Source: Eubacteriales bacterium (GTDB lineage: Bacteria > Bacillota > Clostridia > Oscillospirales > CAG-272). From it: DNA of 39,233 bases. Shown here piece after piece: positions 19,318 through 38,058 of this stretch (positions are counted from its first letter, which is position 1; each line of letters starts with the position of its first letter). The stretch is from NCBI GenBank assembly GCA_045654845.1, contig JAZOOB010000044.1, forward strand, positions 1 to 39,233. The letters are read 5' to 3'. Made by a program: the position numbers and the translations under genes. Under the pieces are notes generated by a model. It was not told where the DNA came from and ran no database searches. It saw nothing but the letters and a program-made list of their open reading frames with translations.

Positions 19318-19489
19318 AATTTTTTCGTCACTTTTGACAACAGAAAACGAAAAAATCTGACTTTTGTTAGTACAGAATGACGATTTTTGAGAAAAAAACA
19401 AAAAAATAGAACAATAGTATTCGGTTTTGTGGTAGAATATACGCATAATAAATCCATTTAATTATAATAAGATGAAAGAGGATAGAATA

Positions 19490-20885: not shown

Positions 20886-21119
20886 TATAAGAGATAGAGG
20901 CGCACTCTTGCGATGAGTACCGTATATAAAAGGCTGCCGAGGCTGTACGGGAAGGGCGCAAGTGCCGAAGTGGATGCGGTGGCTCGCATTTCGCTGGCAA
21001 TACAGAGAATATCTGTCTTGCTGTCGCAAAGTTTTTTTGCGGAGTGCTATCCTTTGCATTACCGTTCATATTTCTTTATTATGGACTTTTGCGAGGTAGC
21101 GACGCTGCCTCGCTTTTTC
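20886..21119 (+). promoter_or_regulatory. Lysine riboswitch (L-box) with terminator expression platform
   Basis: ATAGAGGCGC...GAGTA...GGGAAGGGCGCAAGTGCCGAAG...CTGG...GCTGTC parallels the B. subtilis lysC leader core (GATAGAGGTGC...AGAGTA...GCCGAAG...GCTGG...GCTGTC). The terminator GCGAGG-N11-CCTCGC plus T5 lies at 21091-21118, just before dapA. Confidence 0.85.
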
Positions 21120-22036: not shown

Positions 22037-22045
22037 TAAGAAAAG

Positions 22046-22069
22046 GAAAAAGCCCTCTCGGGCTTTTTC
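22046..22069 (+). terminator. Hairpin between dapA and dapB (possible partial terminator or processing site)
   Basis: GAAAAAGCCC-tctc-GGGCTTTTTC. The U-tract is largely inside the stem. Confidence 0.45.
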
Positions 22070-22109
22070 GGTGTTTTTAAAATAAGGAAGAAGTATAAAA
22101 GAGGACGAA

Positions 22110-22856: not shown

Positions 22857-22900
22857 TATAACTTTATGGGGAACACCCCACAAAAAGAGGAAGCATTACT

Positions 22901-23878
22901 ATGAAAATAGCTATATACGGATACGGAAATTTGGGAAAGGGAGTTGAGCTTGCTATATCCAAGGAAAAGGATATGGAGCTTTTCGGCGTATTTACCCGAC
23001 GCGACAAGAACAGTGTGAAAACGATAACGGGCGCGAAGGTTTTTTCGGTATCCGAGCTTGACGAATACAAGGACGAAATAGACGTAATCATAATATGCGG
23101 CGGAAGTGCCACCGACCTTCCCGAAATGACGCCTTCGCTCGCAAAAGCTTTTAACGTAGTGGACAGCTTTGATACACACGCGAAAATTCCCGCGCACTTT
23201 GAAAACGTAGATAAAAGCGCGACGCAGAGCGGTCACGTAGCCCTCATTTCTTCGGGCTGGGACCCCGGTATGTTTTCGATTATGCGACTTTACTCTTCTG
23301 CTATCCTGCCCGACGGCAAGGATTATACCTTCTGGGGCAGAGGAGTGAGCCAAGGACATTCCGACGCGATAAGAAGAATAGACGGCGTGCTTGACGCAAG
23401 ACAGTATACAGTACCGATAGACTCTGCTATGAGCGCGGTAAGAAGCGGCGAATGCCCCACTCTTTCTGTCCGCGAAAAGCATAAAAGAGAATGCTACGTG
23501 GTAGCAGAGGATGGCGCAGACAAGGCAAAAATAGAAAATGAAATAAAAACTATGCCTAACTATTTCGCAGATTACGACACGACAGTCGAGTTTATCTCGA
23601 AAGAGGAGATGGAGAAAAACCACAAGGGCATTTTCCACGGCGGAAACGTCATAAGGACGGGAAAGACGGGTATAAACGGAGAAAATACTCACGTAATCGA
23701 GTATAGCTTGAAATTGGACTCTAACCCCGAATTTACCGCAAGCGTGCTTGTTTCGTATGCGCGCGCAGTATATAAAATGCATAAAAGAGGGGAGATTGGC
23801 TGTAAGACAGTGTTTGACGTCGCGCCTGCAGACCTTTCACCGCTTTCTGCAGAGGAGCTTAGAAAAAATCTGCTTTAA
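22901..23878 (+). CDS. ddh: meso-Diaminopimelate D-dehydrogenase
   Basis: 325 aa. MKIAIYGYGNLGKGVE N-terminus, SSGWDPGMFS and WGRGVSQGHSDA motifs typical of Ddh. Confidence 0.85.
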   Translation: MKIAIYGYGNLGKGVELAISKEKDMELFGVFTRRDKNSVKTITGAKVFSVSELDEYKDEIDVIIICGGSATDLPEMTPSLAKAFNVVDSFDTHAKIPAHFENVDKSATQSGHVALISSGWDPGMFSIMRLYSSAILPDGKDYTFWGRGVSQGHSDAIRRIDGVLDARQYTVPIDSAMSAVRSGECPTLSVREKHKRECYVVAEDGADKAKIENEIKTMPNYFADYDTTVEFISKEEMEKNHKGIFHGGNVIRTGKTGINGENTHVIEYSLKLDSNPEFTASVLVSYARAVYKMHKRGEIGCKTVFDVAPADLSPLSAEELRKNLL

Positions 23879-23902
23879 GTAAAACAAAAAGGATTTTTTA
23901 AT

Positions 23903-25216
23903 ATGTACGAAAGAGATTTAATCTGCGACAATTTAAAGGTGTCGGATGACGGAACGCTTTATTTTGCGGGCTTTAACACCACCTATCTCGCAGAGAAATA
24001 TAAAACCCCCGTCTATCTTATGGACGAACAAAAAATAAGAGAAAATTGCAGGACCTATCTCTCTGCTGTCGCCGAGGCTTTCGGTGAAAACGGACAGGTG
24101 CTATATGCGTCGAAGGCGGCTTCCTTTAAGCGTCTTTACGAGATAATGCGCGAAGAGGGTATGGGTATCGACGTCGTTTCCGTGGGTGAGATATATACTG
24201 CAACAAAAGCAGACTTTCCTATGGAAAGGGCATATTTCCACTCGAACAACAAGACCGACGAGGATATTGAGTACGCAATAGAGCGTGGCGTCGGCTATTT
24301 TGTAGTCGATAACGAAGAGGAATTGTACGCTATCGAAAGAATAGCGAAGGAAAAGAATATAAAGCAGAAGGTGCTTTTGCGAATCACCCCCGGTATAGAC
24401 CCTCACACCTACGAGGCAATAGCTACGGGAAAGGTGGATTCCAAATTCGGCTCGGCAATAGAGACAGGACAGGCAGATAAGATAACAGAGCTTGCACTTT
24501 CTTTAGAAAACGTAAAGCTTTCCGGCTATCACTGTCACGTCGGCTCGCAGGTGTTTGATGCAGAGGTATATATAAGCACCGCGTCCGTAATGCTCGAATT
24601 CGTTTCTCACATAGAAAAGACCTACGGCTATCACGCAGAGGAATTGGATATAGGCGGCGGTTTTGGCGTTCGCTATATATATTCCCAGCCGAAAATTGAT
24701 ATAAGAGAAAACATTCTCACTGTCGGCGCATTTATGAAAAAGAAGGCAGAAGAGCTCGGAATCTCGCTTCCGAAGATTTCCTTTGAGCCTGGTCGAAGCA
24801 TAGTTGCAGACGCGGGACTCACCCTCTACACCGTAGGCACGGTGAAGAAGATCCCCGAATATAAAAACTACGTTTCGGTCGACGGAGGAATGACAGACAA
24901 TATAAGATTTGCACTTTATTCTGCGCCTTATACCGTTTTCCTTTCAAACAGAATGAATGCAGACAGAGATATGATAGCCTCGCTTGTCGGTAGATGCTGT
25001 GAAAGTGGGGATATAATACAGGAAAACGTGGAGTTCCCGTCGGACGTAAAGCGCGGAGATATAGTCGCTTGTCTTACAACGGGCGCGTACCACTATTCTA
25101 TGGCGTCTAACTATAACAGATTAGGAAAGCCCCCTGTCGTTATGCTGACAAAGGGTGGCTCTTACGTGGCGGTAAAGAGACAGACAGTCGAGGACATAGC
25201 CGCACAAGATATATAA
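23903..25216 (+). CDS. lysA: Diaminopimelate decarboxylase
   Basis: PLP-binding YASKA, HCHVGSQ, GGGFGV, EPGRSIVA and CESGD motifs. Confidence 0.9.
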   Translation: MYERDLICDNLKVSDDGTLYFAGFNTTYLAEKYKTPVYLMDEQKIRENCRTYLSAVAEAFGENGQVLYASKAASFKRLYEIMREEGMGIDVVSVGEIYTATKADFPMERAYFHSNNKTDEDIEYAIERGVGYFVVDNEEELYAIERIAKEKNIKQKVLLRITPGIDPHTYEAIATGKVDSKFGSAIETGQADKITELALSLENVKLSGYHCHVGSQVFDAEVYISTASVMLEFVSHIEKTYGYHAEELDIGGGFGVRYIYSQPKIDIRENILTVGAFMKKKAEELGISLPKISFEPGRSIVADAGLTLYTVGTVKKIPEYKNYVSVDGGMTDNIRFALYSAPYTVFLSNRMNADRDMIASLVGRCCESGDIIQENVEFPSDVKRGDIVACLTTGAYHYSMASNYNRLGKPPVVMLTKGGSYVAVKRQTVEDIAAQDI

Positions 25217-26123: not shown

Positions 26124-27404
26124 ATGAGCAATTCAAGAGATACGATATGCGTACAGGGTGGCTACCGCCCCGAAAACGGTGAGCCCCGTCAGATTCCGAT
26201 AATTCAGAGCACTACCTTCCGCTATGAAACGAGTGAGGATATGGGAAAGCTCTTCGACCTTGAGGCGAGCGGATACTTCTATTCCCGTCTGCAGAATCCC
26301 ACCTGCGATACAGTCGCTAAAAAGATAGCGTTACTTGAGGGCGGCTCTGCTGCGATGCTTACCTCGTCGGGACAGGCGGCGAACTTCTACGCGGTGTTTA
26401 ATATAGCGACAAACGGCGACCACGTCGTAGCAAGCTCTGCTCTTTACGGCGGAACCTATAACCTTTTTGCCGTAACTATGAAGAAGATGGGCGTTGAATT
26501 TACCTTCATTTCCCCCGATTGCAGCGAAGAGGAGCTTGCCGATGCATTCCGTCCTAACACCAAGGCGGTATTTGGCGAGACCATTTCAAACCCCTCGCTC
26601 GACGTTCTCGACATAGAGAAATTCGCAAAGGCGGCGCACGCACACGGCGTACCGCTTATTATAGACAATACCTTCGCTACACCTATATTCTGCCGTCCTA
26701 TCGAATTCGGTGCAGATATAGTAACCCATTCGACCACTAAATATATGGACGGTCACGGCGCTTGCGTCGGTGGCTGTATCGTAGATTCGGGCAAGTTCGA
26801 CTGGATGGCAAACAAGGAGCGTTTCCCCGGTCTTACCACCCCCGACGATAGCTATCACGGCATAGTTTATGCCGAGAAGTTCGGTCTTGAGGGCGCGTTT
26901 ATTACGAAGGCGACGGCTCAGCTTATGAGAGATTTCGGCTCTTCGCCCTCACCTATGAGCGCATTCATTCTCAACTTGGGACTTGAGAGCCTTCACGTAA
27001 GAATGAAAAAGCATTCCGATAACGCTTTGGCGATAGCACAGTTCCTCTCTAATCACCCGAAGGTAAAATGGGTAAGATACCCCCGTCTTGAAGGTGACAA
27101 GGGCTACGAGCTTTCAAAGAAGTATATGCCCGAGGGCTCCTGCGGTGTTATAAGCTTCGCATTGGAGGGAGGAAGAGAGGCTGCCGAAAAGGTAATGAAG
27201 AGCCTTAAAATCGCGGCTATCGAAACCCACGTGGCAGACGCGCGTAGTTGCTGCCTGCACCCTGCAAACGCGACCCACAGACAGATGAACGACGAGGAAT
27301 TGGTAGCGGCGGGAATCACCCCCGACCTTATCCGTTATTCCTGCGGTCTTGAATCAGCCGAGGACTTGATTGCAGACCTTAGCGCAGCAATTGCGACGAT
27401 ATAA
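26124..27404 (+). CDS. metY: O-acetylhomoserine aminocarboxypropyltransferase (sulfhydrylase), PLP-dependent
   Basis: Cys/Met-metabolism PLP family: YSRLQNPT, HSTTKYMDGHG (PLP lysine) and RYSCGLE. Confidence 0.85.
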   Translation: MSNSRDTICVQGGYRPENGEPRQIPIIQSTTFRYETSEDMGKLFDLEASGYFYSRLQNPTCDTVAKKIALLEGGSAAMLTSSGQAANFYAVFNIATNGDHVVASSALYGGTYNLFAVTMKKMGVEFTFISPDCSEEELADAFRPNTKAVFGETISNPSLDVLDIEKFAKAAHAHGVPLIIDNTFATPIFCRPIEFGADIVTHSTTKYMDGHGACVGGCIVDSGKFDWMANKERFPGLTTPDDSYHGIVYAEKFGLEGAFITKATAQLMRDFGSSPSPMSAFILNLGLESLHVRMKKHSDNALAIAQFLSNHPKVKWVRYPRLEGDKGYELSKKYMPEGSCGVISFALEGGREAAEKVMKSLKIAAIETHVADARSCCLHPANATHRQMNDEELVAAGITPDLIRYSCGLESAEDLIADLSAAIATI

Positions 27405-27432
27405 GTAATAAAACCCGAGAAAAGAGATAATT

Positions 27433-28362
27433 ATGCCTATTAAGATACCAAACGACCTGCCCGCAGTCAAGATACTCGAGTCGGAAAACATATTCGTGAT
27501 GACCGAGCGACGCGCAATATCGCAGGATATTCGTCCTCTGAGGATTTTACTTTTAAATCTTATGCCGACGAAAATAGATACCGAAACGCAGTTTAGTAGA
27601 TTGCTCGGAAACACCCCCTTGCAGATAGAGCTCACTCTTATGCATACGGCGACTCACAAGGCGAAAAACACGTCAGAGGAGCATCTTTTAAACTTTTATT
27701 GCGAGTTTGAGAGCATAAAGGACGAGTATTTCGACGGTCTCGTAATTACGGGCGCGCCGGTTGAAAAGATGGCGTTTGAGGACGTTCAATATTGGGACGA
27801 GCTTTGCGAGATTCTTGAATGGAGTAAGACTCACGTTTTCAGCACCCTTTCGGTCTGCTGGGGCGCGCAGGCGAGCTTCTATTATTTCTATGGAATAGAC
27901 AAGCACCCGTTAGACGAAAAGCTTTTCGGTGTGTTTGAGCATAAGGTGGAGCACGCCGAGTCGAGACTTTTCCGCGGCTTTGACGATACCTTTATGGCAC
28001 CTCACTCAAGACATACCTACGTAAAGCGTGAAGATATAGAAGCATGTCCTAAGCTTCGAGTGCTTTCTTCGTCTGACGAAGCGGGCGTTTTCGTTATCGA
28101 GGACGAAAAGCACCGTCGCGTGTTCATCACAGGACACCCCGAATACGATGAAAGAACGCTTGAAAAGGAATATTTAAGAGATAAGAATTTAGGTCTTCCT
28201 ATCGCACCGCCGAAGAATTATTATCCTGGCGACGACGATACGAAGAAGCCTAACGTGAGCTGGAAGGCGCACGCGAATCTTTTGTATTCAAACTGGCTGA
28301 ACTACTACGTATATCAGACGACCCCGTACGATATAAAGGAAATAGTCAGCGAAGAGGAGTAA
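27433..28362 (+). CDS. metA: Homoserine O-acyltransferase (MetA family)
   Basis: [12 protein letters not shown]-terminus, LNLMP, ITGAP, VCWGAQ (active-site Cys) and GHPEYD. Confidence 0.88.
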
Positions 28363-28428: not shown

Positions 28429-28457
28429 TTGACAAAATTGAAATACTGTGGTATACT
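28429..28457 (+). promoter_or_regulatory. Sigma-A promoter (extended -10) for T-box leader 1
   Basis: TTGACA, 17-bp spacer ending in TGTGG, TATACT. Confidence 0.7.
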
Positions 28458-28505
28458 ACCCACTGTAATTGTGGAAGTAGTTTATTTTCCATAAAACTCA
28501 ATAAA

Positions 28506-28757
28506 GGCTATGATAAAGACGGTGACCCTTACAGTGCGGCACAGAGAAACGGCGGTTGGTGAAAGCCGTAGCGCAAGAGGAGTTTACCTATCACTTTTGA
28601 GCCGGGAGCCCGAAAAATGCAGTAAGGCTTCACGAGAAGCGCAGCGTCAGTGCGTAGGAGTTGTTGGTCTCCGTGAGTGGCGACAAGGTCGCAATTTGAG
28701 TGGTACCGCGAGTGTATTTTCACCCGTCTCAAAGAATTTACTTTGAGGCGGTTTTTT
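28506..28757 (+). promoter_or_regulatory. T-box riboswitch leader 1; specifier read as AUC (Ile)
   Basis: Stem I K-turn halves GGC-UAU-GA (28506-28513) and GA-GCC (28599-28603). AGAGA bulge at 28543-28547. Distal loop GGUUGGUGAAAG. Specifier AUC at 28590-28592 followed by A. T-box sequence AATTTGAGTGGTACCGCG at 28693-28710. Terminator CCGTCTCAAAG-aattta-CTTTGAGGCGG plus T6 at 28724-28757, whose 5' arm can alternatively pair with the T-box TTTGAG. Confidence 0.88.
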
Positions 28758-28814
28758 ATTTGACCTGCTTCAAGGACAGTTGGATACCGAAAAACGGCAA
28801 AACAGGAGGTTACT

Positions 28815-31079
28815 ATGTCAAAAGAAACGAAGAATAAGCTTTTAGAGGTCGCGCAGCGTATAAAGGAAATGCGAGAGATAGACGGCATTTCCGTCGAAGA
28901 AATGGCGCGCAAGACCGAGGTTAAATTAGAAGAATATTTAGAGTATGAGGCAGCAAAAAAGGATTTCCCCTTTACCTTTATACATAAATGTGCGCTTGCG
29001 TTCGGTATAGGAATTACCGACCTTCTCGAAGGACAGAGTGCATCGCTTTCCTCTTATACCGTAACGCGCAAGGGCGACGGTCAGCAGACAGCGAAGGAGG
29101 ACGGCATCGAGATAACGAACTTAGCGCCCCTTTTCAGAAAGAAGATAGCAGAGCCCTATTGGGTAAAATATGAATATGACGAGAAGCTTCAAGACCAGCC
29201 TATAACCCTTGCTACCCACTCGGGACAGGAGTTTGACCTTATAATGAAGGGACGCTTAAAGGTGCAGATAGGCGACCACGTGGAATATCTTGAAGAGGGC
29301 GACAGTATCTACTATAACAGTGCGACGCCTCACGGAATGGTAGCCGTTGGCGGTGAGGACTGTCTTTTCGTCGCAGTCGTCTTGCCGGGAGATTCTACCT
29401 CGGAAACAGTGACGAGAGCCACACTTTCTAAAAACACCGAAAAGACCGAGCTTGTAAGCTCGAGCTTTATAAAGACCGAAGAGGACGAAAACGGAACTCT
29501 TACGAAAATAGATTTCGAAAATGAGGATAATTTCAACTTTGCATTCGACATAGTCGACGAGATAGCGAAGAAGAATCCCTCGAAGCTCGCTATGCTTCAC
29601 ATCGATAAAAACGGAGTAGAGCGTCGCTTCACCTTCCGCGATATGAAGCGCGCGTCTAATATGACGGCAAACTATTTTAAATCGCTCGGCATTAAGAAGG
29701 GCGACAAGGTAATGCTCGTTTTAAAGCGTCATTACCAGTTCTGGTTTGCGATCCTCGGACTTCACAAGCTCGGCGCCGTCGCTATCCCTGCGACCAATCT
29801 TTTGCAGGAGCACGACTTCGACTATCGCTTCAAGGCGGGTGAGGTCAGCGCTATCGTATGTACAGCAGACGGAGACGTCGCGCGTCAGGTAGAGCTCGCA
29901 GAAAAGAACGGACACACCTTAAAGCATAAGATACTTGTCGGTGGCAAGAGAGAGGGCTGGCACGATTATAACGAGGAATACTCTATGTATAGTGCCCACT
30001 TCTACCGAGACGAGAACACCGCTTGCGGAAACGATCCCTTGCTTATGTTCTTTACGTCGGGCACGACGGGTTATCCAAAGATAGCCGTACACAATCACAA
30101 ATATCCCTTGGGACATTACATAACCGCGAAATATTGGCACGGAGTACATGAAAACGGACTTCATTTCACGATTTCCGAGACCGGCTGGGGTAAAGCCCTT
30201 TGGGGTAAGCTCTACGGACAGTGGCTCTGCGAGGGTGCGGTGTTCACCTACGACTTCGACCGCTTTAACGCAGCGGAGATACTTCCGATGTTCGCAAAGT
30301 ATAATATAACTACCTTCTGCGCACCCCCCACTATGCTCAGAATGCTCGTAAAAGAGGACATCTCGCAGTACGACCTTTCCTCTATCAAGCATATGACCAC
30401 GGCAGGCGAGGCGCTTAATCCCGAGGTATTCCGTCAATTCCAGCAGACGACAGGTCTTTCTATTATGGAGGGCTTCGGACAGACCGAAATGACGCTTGCT
30501 ATCGCAAACCTTATGGGTAGCACCTGTAAGCTCGGCTCTATGGGTAAGGCAGTACCGCTTTACGACATAAAGCTTCTCGACCCCGACGGAAACGAGGTCG
30601 CCCCCGGACAGACGGGAGAAATCGTTATAAGAACCGACGAAAAGATACCCTGCGGACTTTTCTCCGGCTATTACGGAGACAAGGCGAAGACCGACGAGGC
30701 TTGGTACGACGGATATTACCATACCGGTGATACCGCTTGGCGCGACGAGGACGGCTTCTTCTTCTATGTAGGTCGTGCAGACGACGTAATCAAGTCGTCG
30801 GGCTACCGTATCGGTCCGTTTGAAATAGAGAGTGTAATTATGGAGCTTCCTTACGTGCTTGAATGTGGAGTTTCCGCTGCACCCGACGAGGTAAGAGGTC
30901 AGGTGGTAAAGGCGAGCGTCGTGCTCGTCAAGGGCGTAGAGCCGACAGAAGAGCTTAAAAAGGATATTCAGAATTACGTCAAGGAGCATACTGCCCCCTA
31001 TAAGTATCCGAGAATAGTCGAGTTCCGAACCGAGCTTCCCAAGACTATAAGCGGAAAGATACAAAGAAACAAGCTCTGA
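28815..31079 (+). CDS. Fusion protein: N-terminal XRE HTH + cupin, C-terminal AMP-forming (medium/short-chain) acyl-CoA ligase; 754 aa
   Basis: HTH (LLEVAQRIKEMREIDGISVEEMARKT). Cupin (THSGQEFDLIMKGRLKVQIGDHVEYLEEGDSIYYNSATPHG). Adenylate-forming motifs FFTSGTTGYPK, YHTGDTAWRDEDGFFFYVGRADDVIKSSGYRIGPFEIE and PKTISGKIQR. RBS AGGAGG. Confidence 0.85.
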   Translation: MSKETKNKLLEVAQRIKEMREIDGISVEEMARKTEVKLEEYLEYEAAKKDFPFTFIHKCALAFGIGITDLLEGQSASLSSYTVTRKGDGQQTAKEDGIEITNLAPLFRKKIAEPYWVKYEYDEKLQDQPITLATHSGQEFDLIMKGRLKVQIGDHVEYLEEGDSIYYNSATPHGMVAVGGEDCLFVAVVLPGDSTSETVTRATLSKNTEKTELVSSSFIKTEEDENGTLTKIDFENEDNFNFAFDIVDEIAKKNPSKLAMLHIDKNGVERRFTFRDMKRASNMTANYFKSLGIKKGDKVMLVLKRHYQFWFAILGLHKLGAVAIPATNLLQEHDFDYRFKAGEVSAIVCTADGDVARQVELAEKNGHTLKHKILVGGKREGWHDYNEEYSMYSAHFYRDENTACGNDPLLMFFTSGTTGYPKIAVHNHKYPLGHYITAKYWHGVHENGLHFTISETGWGKALWGKLYGQWLCEGAVFTYDFDRFNAAEILPMFAKYNITTFCAPPTMLRMLVKEDISQYDLSSIKHMTTAGEALNPEVFRQFQQTTGLSIMEGFGQTEMTLAIANLMGSTCKLGSMGKAVPLYDIKLLDPDGNEVAPGQTGEIVIRTDEKIPCGLFSGYYGDKAKTDEAWYDGYYHTGDTAWRDEDGFFFYVGRADDVIKSSGYRIGPFEIESVIMELPYVLECGVSAAPDEVRGQVVKASVVLVKGVEPTEELKKDIQNYVKEHTAPYKYPRIVEFRTELPKTISGKIQRNKL

Positions 31080-31123
31080 TAAAAGGGAAAAGCATAAATT
31101 TTCGCTTTTTTGACAAAAAGATA

Positions 31124-31152
31124 TTGACAAATGCTTTGAGAAATGATAAAAT
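31124..31152 (+). promoter_or_regulatory. Sigma-A promoter for T-box leader 2
   Basis: TTGACA, 17-bp spacer, TAAAAT. Confidence 0.6.
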
Positions 31153-31163
31153 AACCGCATAAA

Positions 31164-31421
31164 AGCTTTGACGAAGAGGACGAAGGCTTGCGTTTTTGCA
31201 GAGAGACGGGATTGCTGTGAACCGTTAAAACAGAACCTTACGTTGTAACTTCCGAGCTGAGAGGAAGAAAGAGAAATTGAGTAGACCCTCTCCGAAAAAC
31301 GTAGCGTTAGTACGGAAAAGGTTGATAGACCTTGAGTGGCGACGGAGTCGCAATTTGAGTGGTACCGCGGGTTAGTTTTTACGGCTCGTCTCAAAGTATT
31401 ATCTTTGGGACGAGCTTTTTT
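31164..31421 (+). promoter_or_regulatory. T-box riboswitch leader 2; specifier read as GUA (Val)
   Basis: K-turn halves AGC-UUU-GA (31164-31171) and GA-GCU (31254-31258). AGAGAG bulge at about 31199-31204. Specifier GUA at 31245-31247 followed by A. F-box-like GCGTTAGTA. T-box AATTTGAGTGGTACCGCG at 31352-31369. Terminator GCTCGTCTCAAAG-tattat-CTTTGGGACGAGC plus T6 at 31384-31421. Confidence 0.88.
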
Positions 31422-31443: not shown

Positions 31444-33729
31444 ATGGAAAAAATAACTGCTCTTGATCTTAAAATTCAAGAGATGGCTAATCGAATAAAG
31501 GAGCTTCGCGAGATTCAGGGACTCAGTGTTTCTGAAATGGCTATTAAAACGAACGTGTCTGAGGTCGAGTACCTTGCCTGTGAAAACGGACAGTCCGACT
31601 TAAACTTCGCGTTCATTTATCGCTGCGCGCAGGCTTTTGGCGTCGACGTCACCGATATTATCGAGGGTAAGAGCCCGACGCTTAAATCCTACACGCTCAC
31701 AAGAGCAGGTGCAGGACAGAGAATAGAGGAAGCGCACGGAATGACCTATTTCAACCTTGCACCTTCCTTTAAAAACAGAATTGCAGAGCCTCTTTTTGTA
31801 CGCAGCAGATACAATCCCGACTCTCAGAACAAGGATATTGAGCTGACCACACACGTAGGTCAGGAGTGCGATATCGTAGTAGAGGGAAGACTGAAGGTAC
31901 AGATAGGCGAGCATCAGGAGATACTCGGCCCCGGCGATAGCATTTACTACGACTCTTCGACGCCTCACGGTATGATAGCCGTAGACGGACAGGACTGTGC
32001 ATTCTACGCCTTCGTGCTTAACCCCACAGGCGAGGACGTCCCCGAATTTACTCATCAGAAGAGAACGGTCGTTATAAAGGCGAAAAAGGACGAGGGCGAA
32101 AGAGTATATAAGCGCTTTATCGAAACCGAGGAAAACGAAAACGGAACGCCTACCTCGATAAAGTTCAAGAATATAGACAAATTCAATTTTGCATACGATA
32201 TATTAGACGAGATAGCGAAAAAAGACCCCGACAAGCTTGCGCTTTTACATATATCAAACGATAAAAAGGAAAGTCGCTTCAGCTTTTCGGATATTAAAAA
32301 GTATTCCTGCCGCGCGGCGAACTATTTCCGTTCACTCGGTATCAAGCGCGGAGACAAGGTAATGCTCGTTTTGGGCAGACACTATCAGTTCTGGTTTGCT
32401 ATGCTCGGTCTTAACAGAATAGGCGCGATAGGAATTCCCGCGATGAATCAGTTGCTCGATCACGACTTCGAGTACCGCTTCAACAAGGCGGGTGTAAGCG
32501 CAATTATATGTACAGCGAAGGGCGCTGTCACCGAGCAGGTAGACATTGCGGCGAAGAAATGCCCGCAGCTTTTACATAAGATAATAGTTGGTGGCGAGCG
32601 CGAGGGCTGGCGCAACTTTGACGAGGAATGCGCACTCTTCAGTACTCACTTTGAAAGAACAGAGAATACGGCAGGCGGAGACGACACGATGCTGATGTTC
32701 TTCACCTCGGGTACGACGGGTTATCCCAAGATAGCCGCACACAATTACAAATATGCACTCGGACACTTCCATACAGCGAAGTATTGGCATAACGTAGATC
32801 CCGACGGACTTCACTTCACGATTTCCGACACAGGCTGGGCGAAGGCTATGTGGGGTAAATTCTACGGTCAGTGGCTCTGCGAGAGTGCGACGTTCGTATA
32901 CGACTTTGACCGCTTTAACGCGAGCGACATTCTTCCTATGTTCGCAAAATATAATATAACGACCTTCTGCGCGCCCCCCACGATGCTCAGAATGCTTATA
33001 AAAGAGGATATTTCGAAATACGACCTTTCCTCTGTCAAGCATATGACGACAGCGGGCGAAGCGCTCAACCCCGAGGTCTACCGTCAGTTCGAGCAGGCGA
33101 CGGGCTTGCAGATACTCGAGGGCTTCGGACAGTCGGAAAGCACGATGATGATAGGAAATATGACGGGCGCGCCGCATAAGATCGGCTCTATGGGTAAGCC
33201 TGCACCTATCTATGATATTGAGCTTATTGATCCCGAAGGAAATCCCGTTCCCGTCGGTGAAACGGGTGAAATCGTCGTAAATATTAAAGAAGGCTCGCCT
33301 TGTGGCTTGTTTACCGAATATTATGGCGATCCCGATAAGACGCTGGAGGCGCGACACGACGGATATTACCACACAGGCGATACCGCTTGGCGCGATGAGG
33401 ACGGATTCTTCTGGTACGTAGGTAGAGTGGTCGACGTAATCAAGTCGTCGGGCTACCGCATAGGTCCTTTTGAAATAGAGAGCGTAATTATGGAGCTTCC
33501 TTACGTACTCGAGTGTGGAGTTTCTGCCGCACCCGACGAGGTAAGAGGTCAGGTCGTAAAGGCGAGTATCGTGCTTGTAAACGGTACAGAGCCGACAGAG
33601 GAGCTGAAAAAGGAAATTCAGGAATACGTAAAGACGCACACCGCGCCCTATAAGTATCCGAGAATAGTAATCTTCCGTGACTCGCTTCCCAAGACCGCGA
33701 GTGGAAAGATACAGCGCAATCTCTTGTAA
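31444..33729 (+). CDS. Paralogous fusion protein: XRE HTH + cupin + AMP-forming acyl-CoA ligase; 761 aa
   Basis: Same architecture as 28815..31079. Long identical peptide runs (MFFTSGTTGYPKIA, MFAKYNITTFCAPPTMLRML, VIKSSGYRIGPFEIESVIMELPYVLECGVSAAPDEVRGQVVKAS). RBS AGGAG. Confidence 0.85.
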   Translation: MEKITALDLKIQEMANRIKELREIQGLSVSEMAIKTNVSEVEYLACENGQSDLNFAFIYRCAQAFGVDVTDIIEGKSPTLKSYTLTRAGAGQRIEEAHGMTYFNLAPSFKNRIAEPLFVRSRYNPDSQNKDIELTTHVGQECDIVVEGRLKVQIGEHQEILGPGDSIYYDSSTPHGMIAVDGQDCAFYAFVLNPTGEDVPEFTHQKRTVVIKAKKDEGERVYKRFIETEENENGTPTSIKFKNIDKFNFAYDILDEIAKKDPDKLALLHISNDKKESRFSFSDIKKYSCRAANYFRSLGIKRGDKVMLVLGRHYQFWFAMLGLNRIGAIGIPAMNQLLDHDFEYRFNKAGVSAIICTAKGAVTEQVDIAAKKCPQLLHKIIVGGEREGWRNFDEECALFSTHFERTENTAGGDDTMLMFFTSGTTGYPKIAAHNYKYALGHFHTAKYWHNVDPDGLHFTISDTGWAKAMWGKFYGQWLCESATFVYDFDRFNASDILPMFAKYNITTFCAPPTMLRMLIKEDISKYDLSSVKHMTTAGEALNPEVYRQFEQATGLQILEGFGQSESTMMIGNMTGAPHKIGSMGKPAPIYDIELIDPEGNPVPVGETGEIVVNIKEGSPCGLFTEYYGDPDKTLEARHDGYYHTGDTAWRDEDGFFWYVGRVVDVIKSSGYRIGPFEIESVIMELPYVLECGVSAAPDEVRGQVVKASIVLVNGTEPTEELKKEIQEYVKTHTAPYKYPRIVIFRDSLPKTASGKIQRNLL

Positions 33730-33738: not shown

Positions 33739-34395
33739 ATGAAGGATAAAAGAATTACCATACTGTCGGGACATTACGGCAGTGGAAAAACGAATATAGC
33801 GGTAAATATCGCACTCGACCTGAAAAAAAGGCACGAGAAGGTGGCGGTCGCCGACATAGATATAGTAAATCCCTATTTCAGAACCAAGGATAGCGAGGAG
33901 CTTTTTAAAAGAGAGGGAATAAGGCTTATCTGCTCGGAATACGCAAACACAAACGTCGATATTCCCGCACTACCGCAAGAAATGTACGCGGTGACAGACG
34001 ACAAGTCGCTTTATGCAGTGCTTGACGTAGGAGGAGATGAACGAGGCGCTCTCGCGCTCGGACGAATTTCCCCCGCTATCGCAAAGGAAGACGACTACGA
34101 GATGATATACGTGGTGAACTTCTACCGCCCGTTGACACAGGACGTAGACAGCGCTATCGAGGTCATGCGCGAAATAGAATACGCTTGTAAACTAAAGTTT
34201 ACTTCGATAATCAACAACTCAAATCTGGGGGCAGAGACCGATTCGGAGGATATTATAAAATCTCTTTCGAAGGCAGAAGCGCTTTCAGAAAAAACGGGAC
34301 TTCCGCTTCTTTATACGACGGTGAAGAAAATGACACCCGAGCTTGAAGGCAGAGAAGAGGATTTTCGAGCTATTTCATTACAGAAACATATGTAA
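33739..34395 (+). CDS. Uncharacterised P-loop NTPase (SIMIBI/G3E-like), 218 aa
   Basis: Walker A GHYGSGKT, a Walker-B/switch-like VLDVGGDERG, and IINNSNLG where G3E GTPases carry NKxD. The start lies 9 nt after the stop of the upstream ligase. Confidence 0.6.
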   Translation: MKDKRITILSGHYGSGKTNIAVNIALDLKKRHEKVAVADIDIVNPYFRTKDSEELFKREGIRLICSEYANTNVDIPALPQEMYAVTDDKSLYAVLDVGGDERGALALGRISPAIAKEDDYEMIYVVNFYRPLTQDVDSAIEVMREIEYACKLKFTSIINNSNLGAETDSEDIIKSLSKAEALSEKTGLPLLYTTVKKMTPELEGREEDFRAISLQKHM

Positions 34396-34407: not shown

Positions 34408-34614
34408 ATGGCAAAGCTTACGTTTAAAACCGACAAGTGCAAGGGCTGCGGTCTTTGTGTCGGAGTTTGTCCTAAGGGCGTCCTTGCTATTGCAGAGGAC
34501 AAAATCAATGCGAAGGGGCATCACCCCGTCGTAGCAGTAAAAGAAGAGGCGTGCATAGGCTGTGCATTCTGCGCTACTATGTGTCCTGACTGTATTATCA
34601 AGGTAGAGAGGTGA
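34408..34614 (+). CDS. 2x[4Fe-4S] ferredoxin-type delta subunit of 2-oxoacid:ferredoxin oxidoreductase
   Basis: 68 aa with two CxxCxxCxxxCP motifs (CKGCGLCVGVCP, CIGCAFCATMCP). Confidence 0.85.
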   Translation: MAKLTFKTDKCKGCGLCVGVCPKGVLAIAEDKINAKGHHPVVAVKEEACIGCAFCATMCPDCIIKVER

Positions 34615-34620: not shown

Positions 34621-35685
34621 ATGGCAGATAAGGTTTTAATGAAGGGTAACGAAGCGATAGCAGAGGCTGCTATAATCGCAGGTTGCCGTCACTATTTCGG
34701 ATATCCTATTACACCCCAGACGGAAATTGCCGCTTATATGGCGAAGAGAATGCCTAAAATCGGTGGTATATTCCTTCAGGCAGAGAGCGAAGTAGCCGCT
34801 ATAAATATGGTTTACGGTGTTTCGGCTACCGGTAAGAGAGTTATGACCTCTTCGTCGAGCCCCGGAATTTCGCTTAAGGGAGAGGGTATTTCCTATCTCG
34901 CAGGCGCAGACCTTCCCGCACTTATAGTAAACGTACAGCGCGGAGGCCCCGGTCTTGGCGGTATTCAGCCTTCCCAGTCCGACTATTTCCAGGCGACCAA
35001 GGGTGGTGCGCACGGTGACTTCCATATGATAGTTCTTGCACCTGCATCGGTACAGGAAATGGCGGAGCTTACCGTACACGGCTTCGACCTTGCAGATAAG
35101 TATCGCGTCACCTCTATGATTTTGGCAGACGGTACTATGGGTCAGATGATGGAGCCTGTTTCTCTTGATTTCAAGACGGCAGAGCCTGTCGAAAAGCCTT
35201 GGGCGACCACGGGTACTAATATGCAGAGAAAGCATAACGTAGTAAACTCGCTCTTCTTAAAGCCCGAGCAGCTTGAACAGACGAACTTCGAGCGTTACGA
35301 GAGATATGAGCAGATAAAGAAGAACGAGGCTATGTACGAGGAATATATGATGGACGACGCGGAAATCTGCGTTGTAGCCTTCGGTATTGCAGCCCGCGTT
35401 TCCAAGAATGCGATAAATGAGGCAAGAGCGAAGGGAATCAAGGTAGGACTTATCAGACCTATCACTCTCTGGCCCTTCCCCGAAAAGCCTTTTGAAGAGG
35501 CAGCAAAGAAGGTTAAATCCTTCATTTCCGTAGAGCTTTCTATGGGACAGATGATAGAAGACGTTCGTCTTGCAACGAAGGATGCAAAGCCGGTTACCCT
35601 TTGTAACCGTTCAGGCGGTATGATACCCTCACCCGAGCAGGTACTCGCCGCAATAGAAGAAGCAAACGAAAAGGAGGGCAAATAA
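34621..35685 (+). CDS. 2-oxoacid:ferredoxin oxidoreductase, alpha-type subunit (VorB/KorA-like)
   Basis: [32 protein letters not shown]-terminus typical of the OFOR alpha subunit; 354 aa. Confidence 0.85.
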
Positions 35686-35686
35686 G

Positions 35687-36433
35687 ATGAGTGTAGTATT
35701 TGACAAGCCTCATTCCTTGGCAGATCTTCCTCTGCACTACTGCCCCGGCTGTACTCACGGTATCGTTCACCGTCTTGTAGCCGAGGTTATCGACGAGCTT
35801 GGCATCGAGGGAAAGACCATAGGTATCGCCCCCGTTGGATGCTCGGTTATGGCATACGTTTACTTTAACTGCGATATGATAGAAGCGGCTCACGGACGTG
35901 CGCCTGCTGTTGCGGCGGGTGTTAAGCGCTCATTGCCCGACAGCGTAGTATTTACCTATCAGGGCGACGGCGACCTCGCATCTATCGGTATGGCAGAGAC
36001 CGTACACAGTGCGGCAAGAAACGAAAATATCACCGTTATCTTTATAAACAATGCAATTTACGGTATGACGGGCGGACAGATGGCACCTACCTCGCTTCCC
36101 GGTCAGGTCACCCAGACCTCTCCCTACGGACGTGACGTAAACCACTGCGGTTTTCCTATCAAGGTCTGCGAGATGCTCTCTCAGCTTGACGGTCCCGAAT
36201 ATCTTGAGCGTGTAGCCGTAAACAACGTAAAGAACGTAAAGAACGCGAAAAAGGCGATAAAGAAAGCGTTTGAAAATCAGGTAAACGGAAAGGGCTTCTC
36301 ACTCGTTGAGGTTATTTCCTCTTGTCCTACCAACTGGGGTATGACACCGCAAAAGGCGCTTGAATGGATCGACGAAAAAATGATTCCTTATTATCCTCTC
36401 GGTGTATATAAGGATAGAAGCGAAAATAAGTGA
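35687..36433 (+). CDS. 2-oxoacid:ferredoxin oxidoreductase, TPP-binding beta subunit
   Basis: HYCPGCTHG cluster ligands and the TPP motif [14 protein letters not shown]...[11 protein letters not shown]. Confidence 0.85.
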
Positions 36434-36447
36434 GAGGAGAAGAAAAG

Positions 36448-36984
36448 ATGAGTACAGTACAGTATCTTATAGCAGGCTTTGGCGGACAGGGTATTCTGTT
36501 TGCAGGTAAGTTCCTTGCATATAAAGGCTTGAATATGGACAAAAACGTAAGCTGGCTTCCTTCCTACGGCCCCGAAATGCGTGGCGGTACGGCGAGCTGC
36601 AGCGTTATTCTCGGCGACGAGCCCGTAGGCTCGCCCATCGTATCGAAGCCCGACGTTTTGATAGCGATGAACCTTCCTTCTCTCGACAAATACGAGGATA
36701 CGGTAGCAGAAGGCGGCACTATCTACGTAGACTCTACCCTTATCGAGCGTAAGGTAAAGAGAACCGACGTAAAGGTACACTATATCCCTGCGACCAAGAT
36801 TGCAGACGATAACAAAACACCTACCCTTGCCAATATGGTAATTATGGGTAAGGTGCTCGCAGAAAACGGTGAGTTCGACGACGAAGAGGCAGTTCTTGCC
36901 GCGCTTAAGAAGGTAATTTCCGCGAAGCGTGCAGATATGCTCGACGTGAACCTCGGCGCACTCCGTCTTGGAAAGAATTATTAA
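36448..36984 (+). CDS. 2-oxoacid:ferredoxin oxidoreductase, gamma subunit
   Basis: [14 protein letters not shown] and YGPEMRGG motifs. I prefer the ATG at 36448 (GAGGAG upstream) to the GTG at 36430. Confidence 0.85.
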
Positions 36985-36996
36985 GAGGTGGATAAA

Positions 36997-38058
36997 ATGG
37001 AAATTAAAATCACAAAGAATTTAAATCCCGGTGTAAAGCCCGAATCCTCTAAGCTCGGCTTCGGTAAGTATTTCACCGACCATATGTTCATTATGGACTA
37101 CACAGAGGGAAAAGGCTGGCACGACGCGAGAATCGTACCCTTTGGCCCCCTTCAGATTCACCCTGCCTGCACCGCGCTTCACTACGGCGCAGAGATATTT
37201 GAGGGACTCAAGGCATATAGAAGAAAAGACGGAAAGGTTCAGCTTTTCCGCCCCATTGAGAACATTCGCAGAATGAACCGTTCGGCAGAGCGTCTTTGCC
37301 TGCCCACCATTCCCGAGGACCTCGCTATGCAGGTTCTCACCGAGTTCGTTGCATTCGAGCAGGAATGGACCCCCAGTGAAGAGGGAACCTCTCTTTACAT
37401 TCGTCCCTTTATGTTCGGTAATGATGAAACTCTCGGTGTGCATTCCGTAAAGCACGCAAGCTACGTAATCATAACCTCCCCCGTTGGAAGCTACTATGCA
37501 GAGGGCATCAACCCCGTAAAGATTATGATAGAAGCAGACGACGTAAGAGCAGTACGCGGCGGTACGGGTGAAGCTAAGTGTGGCGGTAACTATGCGGCAA
37601 GTACACGCGCAGGTCAGAAGGCAGAACAGCAGGGCTACGCTCAGGTTCTCTGGCTCGATGGCGTAGAGCGCAAGTATATCGAAGAAGTAGGCGCTATGAA
37701 CGTAATGTTCAAGATTGACGGCGAGGTCGTAACTCCCGCGCTCACAGGCTCAATTCTTCCCGGTATTACGAGAAAATCCTGTGTAGAGCTTCTTACAAAG
37801 GAAGGCTACAAGGTAAGCGAGAGAAGACTCAGCATCGACGAGCTTGAAAAGGCACTCGAGGACGGCAAGCTTGAAGAGGCTTGGGGCTGCGGAACTGCGG
37901 CAGTTATTTCCCCTATCGGCACTCTTTCCTATAAGGGCAAGGTGTACGAGGTAAACGGCGGCAAGATAGGCGAGGTAACTCAGCACCTTTACGATACCCT
38001 CACCGGCATTCAGTGGGGTAAGATCGAAGATAAGTTCTCTTGGACCGTTCTTCTTTAA
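36997..38058 (+). CDS. ilvE: Branched-chain amino acid aminotransferase
   Basis: Fold-type IV PLP enzyme: FGKYFTDHMF, HYGAEIFEGLKAYR, GTGEAKCGGNYAAS and GILPGITR. I prefer the ATG at 36997 (AGAGGTGG upstream) to the GTG at 36988. Confidence 0.88.
   Translation: MEIKITKNLNPGVKPESSKLGFGKYFTDHMFIMDYTEGKGWHDARIVPFGPLQIHPACTALHYGAEIFEGLKAYRRKDGKVQLFRPIENIRRMNRSAERLCLPTIPEDLAMQVLTEFVAFEQEWTPSEEGTSLYIRPFMFGNDETLGVHSVKHASYVIITSPVGSYYAEGINPVKIMIEADDVRAVRGGTGEAKCGGNYAASTRAGQKAEQQGYAQVLWLDGVERKYIEEVGAMNVMFKIDGEVVTPALTGSILPGITRKSCVELLTKEGYKVSERRLSIDELEKALEDGKLEEAWGCGTAAVISPIGTLSYKGKVYEVNGGKIGEVTQHLYDTLTGIQWGKIEDKFSWTVLL

Follow-up and report, generated by a model that had tools for sequence, protein, structure and literature searches.

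Paired isoleucine and valine T-box leaders precede tandem acyl-CoA ligase genes in a predicted branched-chain amino acid salvage operon of Oscillospirales

Organization of the locus

The window analyzed here, a stretch of 39,233 nucleotides from an Eubacteriales bacterium (contig JAZOOB010000044.1 of assembly GCA_045654845.1), carries two tandem genes for paralogous AMP-forming acyl-CoA ligases, each preceded by a T-box leader. The second ligase gene is followed by genes for a P-loop NTPase, the four subunits of 2-oxoisovalerate:ferredoxin oxidoreductase (VOR) and the branched-chain amino acid aminotransferase IlvE (Table 1). Dozens of species share this order of genes, and the carriers are MAGs of rumen and gut Ruminococcaceae/Oscillospirales; relatives of ligase 1 are encoded by at least 596 stretches from species-representative genomes. 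No tRNA genes were found within the window.

The VOR alpha subunit scores 547 bits against NF005507 (cut-off 399), and IlvE exceeds the cut-offs of both NF009897 (481.6 bits; cut-off 307) and TIGR01123 (401.9 bits; cut-off 250). The Pfam and NCBIfam matches of the beta, gamma and delta subunits lie under the specific-equivalog thresholds. The P-loop NTPase, which is 49–68% identical across loci and is always located between the ligase and VOR, may help in Fe-S maturation. VOR and ilvE are located behind the second leader only, and no terminator was found between ligase 1 and this leader.

Table 1 Features of the ligase-VOR-aminotransferase locus (positions in the window).
Feature	Position	Strand	Support
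Promoter P1: TTGACA, 17-nt spacer, TATACT, TG extended -10	28429..28457	+	11/12 consensus
T-box leader 1, Ile-specific: Stem I, Stem II, IIA/B, Stem III, antiterminator or terminator	28501..28757	+	RF00230
Stem I of leader 1	28506..28603	+	RF00230 alignment, Stem I model, family covariation
Specifier AUC (Ile), 28590-28592, then purine A, 28593	28590..28593	+	covariance-model alignment
T-box core of leader 1, AAUUUGAGUGGUACCGCG; UGGU bulge 28701-28704	28693..28710	+	covariance model
Intrinsic terminator of leader 1: 11-bp stem and U6 run	28724..28757	+	fold z-score -2.4
Ligase 1, 754 aa: XRE-type HTH, cupin, AMP-forming acyl-CoA synthetase; Ile-type, Gly459	28815..31079	+	Pfam, clades
Promoter P2: TTGACA, 17-nt spacer, TAAAAT, with TG	31124..31152	+	11/12 consensus
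T-box leader 2, Val-specific	31159..31421	+	RF00230
Stem I of leader 2	31164..31258	+	RF00230 alignment, Stem I model, family covariation
Specifier GUA (Val), 31245-31247, then purine A, 31248	31245..31248	+	covariance-model alignment
T-box core of leader 2, AAUUUGAGUGGUACCGCG; UGGU bulge 31360-31363	31352..31369	+	covariance model
Intrinsic terminator of leader 2: 14-bp stem and U-run	31383..31421	+	fold z-score -3.5
Ligase 2, 761 aa: HTH-cupin-acyl-CoA synthetase; Val-type, Ala466	31444..33729	+	Pfam, NCBIfam, clades
P-loop NTPase, 218 aa, ParA/CbiA/Mrp-like	33739..34395	+	weak Pfam, NCBIfam matches
VOR delta subunit, 68 aa, two CxxCxxCxxxCP 4Fe-4S motifs	34408..34614	+	OorD/PorD-type matches
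VOR alpha subunit (VorB type)	34621..35685	+	NF005507, Pfam POR_N, PFOR_II
VOR beta subunit, thiamine-diphosphate binding	35687..36433	+	Pfam, NCBIfam
VOR gamma subunit	36430..36984	+	Pfam, NCBIfam
Branched-chain amino acid aminotransferase (IlvE, class IV)	36988..38058	+	NF009897

Two complete T-box leaders

Both leaders align with the RF00230 covariance model over all of its 219 positions, leader 1 at 28501-28734 (85.6 bits, E = 2.8e-19) and leader 2 at 31159-31396 (83.3 bits, E = 8.8e-19), and leader 1 is also matched by nhmmer and by a Stem I model. E-values of about 1e-19 bear out the original prediction, made from the sequence alone, that T-box leaders are located at these positions. The gathering score of RF00230 is 93 bits (Rfam 15), so that a gathering-mode Rfam scan reports neither leader, both being 7–10 bits short, and annotation by this standard score overlooks them. 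Orthologous leaders score 81–90 bits, compared with 107.9 bits for the neighbouring Leu leader. The low scores of the two leaders are a matter of threshold and reflect no structural defect: like other RF00230 T-boxes, both contain a complete Stem I (GA motif, specifier loop, AG bulge and distal loop), Stem II, IIA/B, Stem III, and an antiterminator with a UGGN bulge that competes with an intrinsic terminator.

In leader 1, Stem I is composed of a basal helix (GGC/GCC), the GA (K-turn) motif, a lower helix (AAAG/CUUU), the specifier loop, an AGAGA bulge and the UUGGUGAAA distal loop. The basal and lower helices of leader 2 are AGC/GCU and GAAG/CUUC, with the GA motif and the specifier loop at the same places. 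The AG bulge and distal loop, which form the tRNA-elbow platform, align with the RF00230 consensus as CAGAGA and GGUUGGUGAAAG in leader 1 and as CAGAGAGA and GAUUGCUGUGAA in leader 2, and these motifs are conserved in the family alignment (A3).

Both leaders have a 7-nt antiterminator bulge that starts with UGGN. Of the 137 family leaders, 134 have UGGU, which reads the tRNA 3' end NCCA and implies a probable A73 discriminator, as had been proposed. In leader 1, CUCAAA serves both as the 5' arm of the terminator and as the antiterminator's 3' strand, and the same sharing is found in leader 2; these mutually exclusive intrinsic terminators place both leaders in the transcriptional class. Promoters comparable to P1 and P2 are located upstream of 70/73 Ile leaders and 47/50 Val leaders, respectively, in related loci.

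The RNA mechanism itself is ordinary; what differs is the set of regulated genes. Rather than an aminoacyl-tRNA synthetase, a classical biosynthetic enzyme or a transporter, the leaders precede an acyl-CoA ligase and a predicted reductive-carboxylation salvage operon.

Specifier codons and their register

Alignment with RF00230 places AUC-A of leader 1 and GUA-A of leader 2 in the 'uuc-a' specifier positions of the consensus. Each codon immediately precedes the 3' strand of the lower helix of Stem I (CUUU:AAAG in leader 1 and CUUC:GAAG in leader 2). The leaders of B. subtilis ileS and valS use the same codons, AUC and GUA, respectively. In both window leaders a single nucleotide separates the specifier from the 3' end of its loop, which is the register used by TBDB (PMC7778990).

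We further assessed the register by building our own Stem I model and collecting homologues of this region (137 sequences from 80 other genomes or related loci). The specifier column contains AUC in 75 sequences, GUA in 42, GUC in 8 and CUC or CUG in 12, and the bases adjoining this column vary. All 75 leaders that precede a type 1 ligase carry AUC, and all 50 that precede a type 2 ligase carry GUA or GUC. In the helix under the specifier, 100% of cells are paired and 4/4 pairs show compensatory changes; the basal helix is 98.5% paired. When the partner strand was shifted by one column, pairing fell from 87% to ~51%. In a distant locus, the RF00230 specifier slot holds the same codons. The specifier register is established far beyond chance, and the earlier assignment of AUC and GUA to the canonical position agrees with the Rfam covariance model, our Stem I model and the covariation.

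Some details depart from canonical T-boxes. In 25 of the 75 Ile leaders, one third of these orthologues, the base 3' of AUC is C instead of the canonical purine. At the positions of the S-turn consensus (AGUA/GAA), leader 1 has GGUG/UAC and leader 2 has AGGAC/CGUU, where Watson-Crick pairing is possible; the specifier-loop segments GGUGA/UUACC and ACG-AAGG/CCUU-A-CGU, respectively, are Watson-Crick-compatible. By minimum free energy, Stem I does not fold better than shuffled sequence in either leader (z = -0.5 and -0.35).

Two ligase types

The two ligases are 66% identical to each other and contain AMP-binding and AMP-binding_C domains (Pfam E = 3e-64 and 4e-20). The closest solved structure to ligase 1 is 3ETC, MacsMa of Methanosarcina acetivorans (E = 2e-185 over 517 aligned residues of the catalytic region), an enzyme that prefers 2-methylbutyrate (PMC10455477). 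The best NCBIfam match is MbcS (NF047394; 438 and 430 bits), although neither ligase reaches the equivalog cut-off of 850 bits. S. aureus MbcS selectively activates 2-methylbutyrate and isobutyrate (PMC10026030). The window ligases share with MacsMa and MbcS the ANL-superfamily fold, the alternate Trp (AKYW), the GWGK motif and a Gly in place of the Acs pocket Trp before QTE (GFGQTE and GFGQSE in the window). They differ in having an additional N-terminal XRE-HTH and cupin module of ~200 aa, which has no sequence relative in the PDB, and in their predicted role, amino-acid salvage as opposed to the lipid priming of MbcS.

The Ile- and Val-type ligases differ mainly in the HTH-cupin module, which did not enter the original interpretation, with 48 of the 55 type-discriminating columns located in the N-terminal part; the catalytic domains are 70% identical between types and 74–75% identical within a type. 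The sharpest clade-specific residue of the catalytic domain is found in the GW-x-K motif, at a position that is Gly in 75/75 Ile-type ligases (Gly459 in ligase 1) and Ala in 40/41 Val-type ligases (Ala466 in ligase 2). This position aligns with GW-I-TGH of acetyl-CoA synthetase and GWGK of MacsMa, and three further discriminating sites are located within 17 residues of it. The smaller residue, Gly, is paired with the larger expected substrate. On these grounds we infer that ligase 1 would prefer 2-methylbutyrate and ligase 2 isobutyrate, the split suggested at the outset. This partition cannot be strict everywhere: in two species (loci L065 and L006), the catalytic domain of the Val-addressed copy is of the Ile type, including the pocket Gly, and is 99.6% (L065) or 93% (L006) identical to that of the Ile-addressed copy. 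In 13 other loci the Ile-type ligase is present alone.

An ancient duplication and later gene conversion

In the ligase tree, the 75 sequences addressed by AUC form an Ile clade and the 41 addressed by GUA or GUC form a Val clade. The leaders follow the same division: all 70 Ile leaders examined have another Ile leader as their nearest neighbour, and 41 of 42 Val leaders have another Val leader. Leader identity is higher between Ile and Val (63%) than between either of these and Leu (54–56%). Since the ligase and leader clades both track the specifier, the leader and the gene were duplicated as one unit, in accord with the original prediction, and the duplication is ancient. It predates the radiation of many Oscillospirales species and is not a local event.

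The 18-nt T-box core is 98–99% identical across all family leaders. The two window leaders also share Stem III (75% identity over 24 nt). When an Ile and a Val leader are taken from different genomes, just 0.3% of the pairs are this similar, and the shared stem reflects homogenisation within the genome. The near-identity of the leader 3' halves, initially taken as a mark of duplication, is real, but part of it stems from later gene conversion and is no remnant of the duplication. Gene conversion has homogenised parts of both copies.

Duplication of T-boxes with a change of specifier is known (Vitreschak et al. 2008; Wels et al. 2008, PMC2494555; PMC3766115; PMC7778990), and here, as in those cases, a mutated specifier re-addresses a paralogous gene to another amino acid. 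In contrast to the documented examples, the duplicated unit is a whole leader plus gene, arranged in tandem and kept as an Ile/Val pair across many species, and it is the leader 3' half and the catalytic domain that gene conversion makes uniform, with Stem I and the N-terminal module remaining distinct. The locus would represent a clean natural case in which concerted evolution is broken only where function is under selection, namely in the specifier domain, in the sensor-like module and at one residue of the pocket.

A model of regulation and pathway

We propose that the two leaders are class-I transcriptional T-boxes, each with its own promoter and terminator, that sense tRNA-Ile and tRNA-Val and control one ligase each, and that the operon salvages isoleucine and valine from branched-chain acids; we give this reading a probability of roughly 80%. 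Uncharged tRNA-Ile would read AUC of leader 1, so that RNA polymerase continues into ligase 1, and uncharged tRNA-Val would read GUA of leader 2 and induce ligase 2, the P-loop protein, vorDABG and ilvE. Because VOR and ilvE are behind the Val leader only, Ile starvation alone should not induce them; this speaks against the model, as do the sub-threshold RF00230 scores, the C that follows AUC in some Ile leaders and the low divergence of the catalytic domains. The most likely substrates are environmental branched-chain fatty acids, the isoacids of gut and rumen. The AMP-forming ligase would convert 2-methylbutyrate or isobutyrate to the CoA thioester, VOR with reduced ferredoxin would carboxylate the thioester reductively to the 2-oxo acid, and the aminotransferase would yield isoleucine or valine. 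VOR and IlvE are expected to take all branched substrates, which would leave the ligase as the sole substrate-selective step and explain why only the ligase and its leader were duplicated and re-addressed. The Ile/Val reading first derived from the specifiers fits an operon that combines a branched-chain-acid-type ligase, VOR and a branched-chain aminotransferase.

The direction of the predicted pathway is consistent with the properties of its parts, as T-boxes induce on amino-acid shortage and AMP-forming ligases run in the activating direction. VOR and IlvE are reversible, and VOR is best known from amino-acid fermentation, so that the operon could instead be catabolic, with aminotransferase followed by oxidative VOR to acyl-CoA and with specifiers that are coincidental or mis-registered. 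An ATP-consuming AMP-forming ligase would have no role downstream of an oxidative VOR, the T-boxes switch on under starvation and not under excess, and the register is fixed by covariation and by 125/125 consistent codons; we regard this explanation as the least probable. Hardly more credible is the supply of branched acyl-CoA primers for membrane fatty acids, the function of MbcS in Staphylococcus aureus. MbcS is the best NCBIfam match, albeit at 438 bits, far under 850, but control by tRNA-Ile and tRNA-Val is sensible only if the product relieves an amino-acid shortage, and the ligases are co-operonic with VOR and the branched-chain aminotransferase in dozens of species.

A more serious objection concerns the division of labour between the ligases. 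The T-boxes and specifiers may be real while both ligases are broad enzymes acting on 2-methylbutyrate and isobutyrate, with the functional divergence residing in the HTH-cupin module; starvation for either amino acid would then raise total ligase, and the Val leader would also raise VOR and IlvE. The use of both acids by the best-matching family, MbcS (PMC10026030), the barely diverged catalytic domains, which in L065 and L006 are almost one and the same protein in both copies, and the N-terminal position of most discriminating columns all favour such an arrangement. Against it, the Gly/Ala difference at the pocket-aligned position has persisted despite recurrent gene conversion, the three discriminating sites near this residue suggest selection for different pockets, and a second identical activity would be hard to maintain given that 13 loci manage with the Ile-type ligase only. 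We consider an undivided pair of ligases unlikely, but well worth keeping in mind.

The salvage pathway favoured here resembles the rumen isoacid carboxylation of the classical studies, in which rumen anaerobes reportedly carboxylate isoacids reductively to branched-chain amino acids (Allison, Bryant and Robinson, 1960s–70s). The predicted sequence from acid to acyl-CoA, 2-oxo acid and amino acid is the same, as are the habitat and taxa; the classical work was physiological. For decades, isobutyrate, 2-methylbutyrate and isovalerate have been recognised as stimulants of rumen bacteria that degrade fibre and as substrates for carboxylation to branched-chain amino acids. To our knowledge, the genes for isoacid carboxylation and their control are poorly defined in Oscillospirales. 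We found no paper in the literature linking this process to the present gene cluster or to T-box control, and neither the regulated pathway nor the sensor-like fusion domain seems to have been described. The T-box specifiers would serve as built-in labels that assign an abundant family, annotated until now only generically as "AMP-binding protein", to Ile/Val salvage and point to a complete ligase-VOR-aminotransferase route, which bears on isoacids as feed supplements and on cross-feeding of amino acids in the gut.

As a tentative extension of the salvage model, possible but on balance doubtful, we suggest that the unit was re-addressed in three layers, with the HTH-cupin module being a sensor specific for Ile/Val or for the isoacids that co-diverged with the specifier. 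The layers would be transcription attenuation (specifier), protein regulation (cupin) and catalysis (Gly/Ala pocket), and recurrent gene conversion would wipe out everything between these selected islands. The module might act by allosteric feedback or by DNA-binding autoregulation, as in a BirA-like 'trigger enzyme'. The adjacent Leu T-box unit could be a third arm, for isovalerate and leucine; in related genomes, this unit comprises a LeuA-like protein and a TIM-barrel-ligase.

Two T-box leaders below the family threshold

A default Rfam scan across the window reported a lysine riboswitch and nothing else. In a permissive search of the intergenic regions, the sequences upstream of both ligase genes (leader 1 and leader 2) gave full-length matches to the T-box model RF00230. 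The default scan was silent on both because their scores lie below the gathering score of 93 bits set in Rfam 15. The Ile and Val leaders of the window and of a distant related locus, L080, score 81–90 bits (E ~1e-17 to 1e-19); under the gathering score as they are, these are clearly genuine T-boxes, and pipelines that apply the gathering cut-off will overlook the whole T-box regulon of the ligase and of VOR (2-oxoisovalerate:ferredoxin oxidoreductase).

Both leaders contain the GA motif, the AGAGA bulge, the distal loop, Stems II, IIA/B and III, and the T-box core AAUUUGAGUGGUACCGCG with its UGGU bulge. Each has a near-consensus promoter of its own and a strong terminator (an 11-bp stem in leader 1 and a 14-bp stem in leader 2, followed by a U-run) whose 5' arm is also the 3' strand of the antiterminator. 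A canonical S-turn consensus was not evident in the specifier loop. As RNAs, leaders 1 and 2 are ordinary class-I transcriptional T-boxes.

Single-sequence folding of Stem I was uninformative (z-scores -0.5 and -0.35, with the lower helix absent from the prediction), and Stem I was therefore analyzed by covariance models and covariation. RNAalifold applied to the model-fitted alignment recovered the two basal helices and nothing else, because the upper part of Stem I is too variable in length.

Coordinates of the features in the window and in related loci
Feature	Locus	Position	Strand	Score or remark
Aspartokinase gene with ACT domains	Window	19472-20812		
Lysine riboswitch, RF00168	Window	20887-21057	+	100 bits
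dapA, dapB, meso-DAP dehydrogenase, lysA operon	Window	21146-25216		
Cys/Met-metabolism PLP enzyme and metA	Window	26124-28362		Directly 5' of leader 1
Leader 1 (Ile)	Window	28501-28734		RF00230, 85.6 bits, E 2.8e-19
AUC-A of leader 1	Window	28590-28593		
XRE-HTH and cupin modules, ligase 1	Window	28815-29414		N-terminal 200 aa
Leader 2 (Val)	Window	31159-31396		RF00230, 83.3 bits, E 8.8e-19
GUA-A of leader 2	Window	31245-31248		
XRE-HTH and cupin modules, ligase 2	Window	31444-32055		N-terminal 200 aa
P-loop NTPase	Window	33739-34395		218 aa
Ile/Val leaders	L080	4733-4969, 7386-7628		
Stem I with C after AUC	L016	5631-5734		
Stem I with C after AUC	L043	5705-5809		
Mosaic ligase pair	L065	5983-10898		
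Mosaic ligase pair	L006	2160-6783		
Leu T-box unit	L043	3009-5560	-	
Leu T-box unit	L025	611-4788	+	
Leu T-box unit, further loci	L034, L038, L050, L057, L061, L063, L069, L073, L075, L077, L080			

The specifiers are AUC and GUA

In the covariance-model alignment, the 'uuc-a' consensus of RF00230 falls on AUC-A in leader 1 and on GUA-A in leader 2. In each leader, these bases immediately precede the 3' strand of the lower Stem I helix (CUUU in leader 1, CUUC in leader 2). Among species-representative genomes, at least 596 stretches carry a relative of ligase 1. The 80 loci kept from these all come from MAGs of Oscillospirales from gut or rumen (Acutalibacteraceae, Ruminococcaceae, Oscillospiraceae and Christensenellaceae). 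The two window leaders served to build a Stem I covariance model, which retrieved 137 Stem I elements. Their specifier column reads AUC (75), GUA (42), GUC (8) or CUC/CUG (12), while the flanking bases vary. All cells of the helix under the specifier are paired, with compensatory changes at four of four pairs, and pairing in the basal helix is 98.5%. The observed covariation was reached by none of 500 shuffles, and shifting the partner strand by one column lowered pairing from 87% to ~51%.

A different triplet in the specifier slot would have refuted the original prediction. None was found: the register is held by the covariation, by L080, in which the Rfam model assigns CUC, GUA and AUC to that slot, and by the TBDB, which calls specifiers in the register used here (PMC7778990). 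We put the probability that the leaders are Ile and Val T-boxes at about 0.95. The original prediction of two T-boxes with these specifiers is confirmed by the full-length RF00230 matches and the specifier covariation, and its leader coordinates were exact.

A conserved purine is expected 3' of the specifier in T-boxes. In 25 of the 75 Ile leaders of the family Stem I alignment, the base following AUC is C, not a purine; the corresponding base is mostly G in Val leaders and is A in both window leaders. One apparent GUC, at position 150 of L038, was an alignment slip, the actual sequence being CUC-C (Leu).

An early duplication of leader and ligase

Ligases were assigned to leaders by tblastn mapping. 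Those closest to ligase 1 have an AUC leader in every case, and those closest to ligase 2 either have a GUA/GUC leader or are leaderless and lie directly behind ligase 1. In a neighbour-joining tree of the ligases, the Ile clade (n = 81) comprises 75 members with AUC, five whose upstream region is missing and one with GUA; the Val clade (n = 48) comprises 41 with GUA/GUC and seven without a leader of their own. The nearest neighbour of a leader is of the same type for 70/70 Ile and 41/42 Val leaders, and Ile and Val leaders are more similar to each other (63% identity) than either is to Leu leaders (54–56%). Ligase clades and leader neighbours thus follow the specifier, so that a single duplication and re-addressing of the leader-plus-gene unit preceded the divergence of these lineages. 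The proposed duplication of leader plus gene with a switch of specifier therefore stands, but as an event that predates the lineages and not as a recent one in this genome.

Most loci share the window arrangement, T[Ile]-lig1-T[Val]-lig2-Ploop-vor(-ilvE), where T is the T-box and ilvE the branched-chain aminotransferase gene. Others are arranged as T[Ile]-lig1-lig2-Ploop-vor, as T[Ile]-lig1-Ploop-vor-ilvE (13 loci, no lig2) or, in one locus, as T[Val]-lig2-Ploop-vor-ilvE.

Divergence of the two ligases

Ligases 1 and 2 are 66% identical and consist of XRE-type HTH, cupin, AMP-binding and AMP-binding_C domains. The clades are separated by 11 alignment columns at ≥90%, only one of which lies in the catalytic domain: Gly459 in 75/75 Ile-type and Ala466 in 40/41 Val-type enzymes, within the motif TGW[G/A]KA. 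When the criterion is relaxed, 55 columns discriminate, 48 of them within the N-terminal ~200–240 residues; of the seven in the catalytic domain, four cluster at residues 459–476. Overall, the catalytic domains have barely diverged (70% identity between types vs 74–75% within type), and the N-terminal modules differ far more (45% vs 60%).

The Gly/Ala position aligns to GW-G-K of MacsMa, GW-A-K of a 4-hydroxybutyrate-CoA ligase, GW-I-L of ACSM2A and GW-I-TGH of acetyl-CoA synthetase, in which Ile312/Thr313 of GW-I-T-GH are reportedly acetate-pocket residues (Ingram-Smith 2006). Its assignment to the pocket rests on this motif alignment and on that reported pocket, because the Acs and MbcS literature consulted yielded no residue-level pocket data. 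An argument from pocket size would pair Gly with the larger acid and Ala with the smaller. That the two ligases prefer distinct acids, as originally suggested, appears somewhat probable.

Since most paralog-specific residues lie in the N-terminal module, it may, as a conjecture, be a specificity-bearing sensor. The N-terminal 200 residues matched no PDB sequence, and a homologue search retrieved contig-end fragments of this fused family and nothing else. In an AlphaFold model (pLDDT 76), the module looks like generic two-domain proteins of HTH plus cupin (1Y9Q, HppE, HEPD), but at a TM of only ~0.35; the matches include a Vibrio HTH_3 regulator as well as the HppE/HEPD enzymes, and at this level the modeled similarity does not indicate a function. 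A search of 123 promoter regions for a conserved operator or palindrome revealed only -35, -10 and Gram-positive -16 TRTG elements. Residues distinguishing the Ile-type from the Val-type module include H57/Y59, K58/R60, E95/A97, I98/M100, I100/Y102, K110/R112 and Y115/L117; H135, E139 and H173 are invariant and resemble a cupin 2-His-1-carboxylate metal site like that of HppE.

Mosaic ligases and local homogenization

The substrate partition cannot be strict in all species. The Val-addressed copies of L065 and L006 have catalytic domains 99.6% and 93% identical, respectively, to those of their Ile neighbours, with Gly at the pocket position, while their N-terminal signatures are still Val-type; gene conversion is thus ongoing. 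Stem I and the N-terminal modules are type-specific throughout.

The 3' halves of the two window leaders had been described as nearly identical. The identity exists but is not simply a trace of duplication. The T-box core is 98–99% identical across all leaders, whereas the variable Stem III region has a mean identity of 0.45 (up to 1.0) within genomes and 0.35 between genomes; the window value of 0.75 is reached by only 0.3% of between-genome pairs. The likeness therefore reflects partly a family-wide constraint on the core and partly later local homogenization. In some genomes (L002, L042, L019 and L003), Stem III of the paired leaders is 92–100% identical.

Operon content points to probable salvage from isoacids

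The genes packed tightly 3' of ligase 2 encode a P-loop NTPase, VOR delta (68 aa, two 4Fe-4S motifs), alpha, beta and gamma, and a branched-chain aminotransferase. VOR alpha passes the NCBIfam VorB model (547 bits vs a cut-off of 399) and the aminotransferase passes the branched-chain equivalog model (482 bits vs 307). T-box genes are switched on by uncharged cognate tRNA, and AMP-forming ligases run in the activating direction. The closest structure to the catalytic part of the ligases is PDB 3ETC (E 2e-185), which is MacsMa, an enzyme that prefers 2-methylbutyrate (PMC10455477); their best NCBIfam model is MbcS, which selectively activates 2-methylbutyrate and isobutyrate (PMC10026030).

The simplest reading of gene content, T-box induction and ligase direction combined, and one we regard as likely, is that the operon recovers Ile and Val from isoacids (isobutyrate, 2-methylbutyrate, isovalerate). 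The ligase would activate the isoacid, VOR would carry out a ferredoxin-dependent reductive carboxylation, and the aminotransferase would yield Ile and Val by transamination; these three steps form the classical rumen pathway. In the window, VOR and ilvE lie downstream of the Val leader, and no terminator was found between ligase 1 and leader 2; Ile starvation alone is therefore expected to raise ligase 1 only; basal expression, other oxidoreductases or coupled starvation might bridge this gap.

In every architecture, the P-loop NTPase is encoded between ligase and VOR genes. It has weak similarity to ParA/CbiA/NUBPL and MrpORP and may deliver Fe-S clusters to VOR.

Overall, the original interpretation is supported. 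T-box duplication with a change of specifier has already been described (Wels 2008, PMC2494555; summaries PMC3766115, PMC7778990). Full-text literature searches and the T-box surveys consulted contained no T-box regulon of acyl-CoA ligase and VOR, nor any link of T-boxes to either enzyme, with an earlier listing in Vitreschak 2008 or Gutierrez-Preciado 2009 possible; the HTH-cupin-ligase fusion was likewise not described there. What appears new here is an informative regulated function, not the RNA mechanism.

A Leu unit in related loci and the window neighbourhood

A third T-box with the Leu specifier CUC/CUG, absent from the window, adjoins or diverges from the Ile unit in ~25 related loci; the Leu leader of L080 scores 107.9 bits. 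The third T-box precedes a 470-aa LeuA-like protein with HMGL-like and LeuA_dimer domains; the catalytic motif at its N-terminus appears degenerate (DITMKQA vs the canonical DTTLRDGEQ). A ligase of ~770–820 aa follows, in which a xylose-isomerase-like TIM barrel is fused to an AMP-binding domain and which is 25% identical to ligases 1 and 2. This unit could be an isovalerate/Leu arm.

In the window, the aspartokinase gene precedes the lysine riboswitch, which lies upstream of the dapA–lysA operon. The PLP enzyme (O-acetylhomoserine sulfhydrylase-like) and metA (homoserine O-acyltransferase) recur as neighbours in another related locus, L021. From the aspartokinase gene on (~19.5–38 kb), the window is devoted mostly to amino-acid biosynthesis (Lys, Met, Ile, Val).
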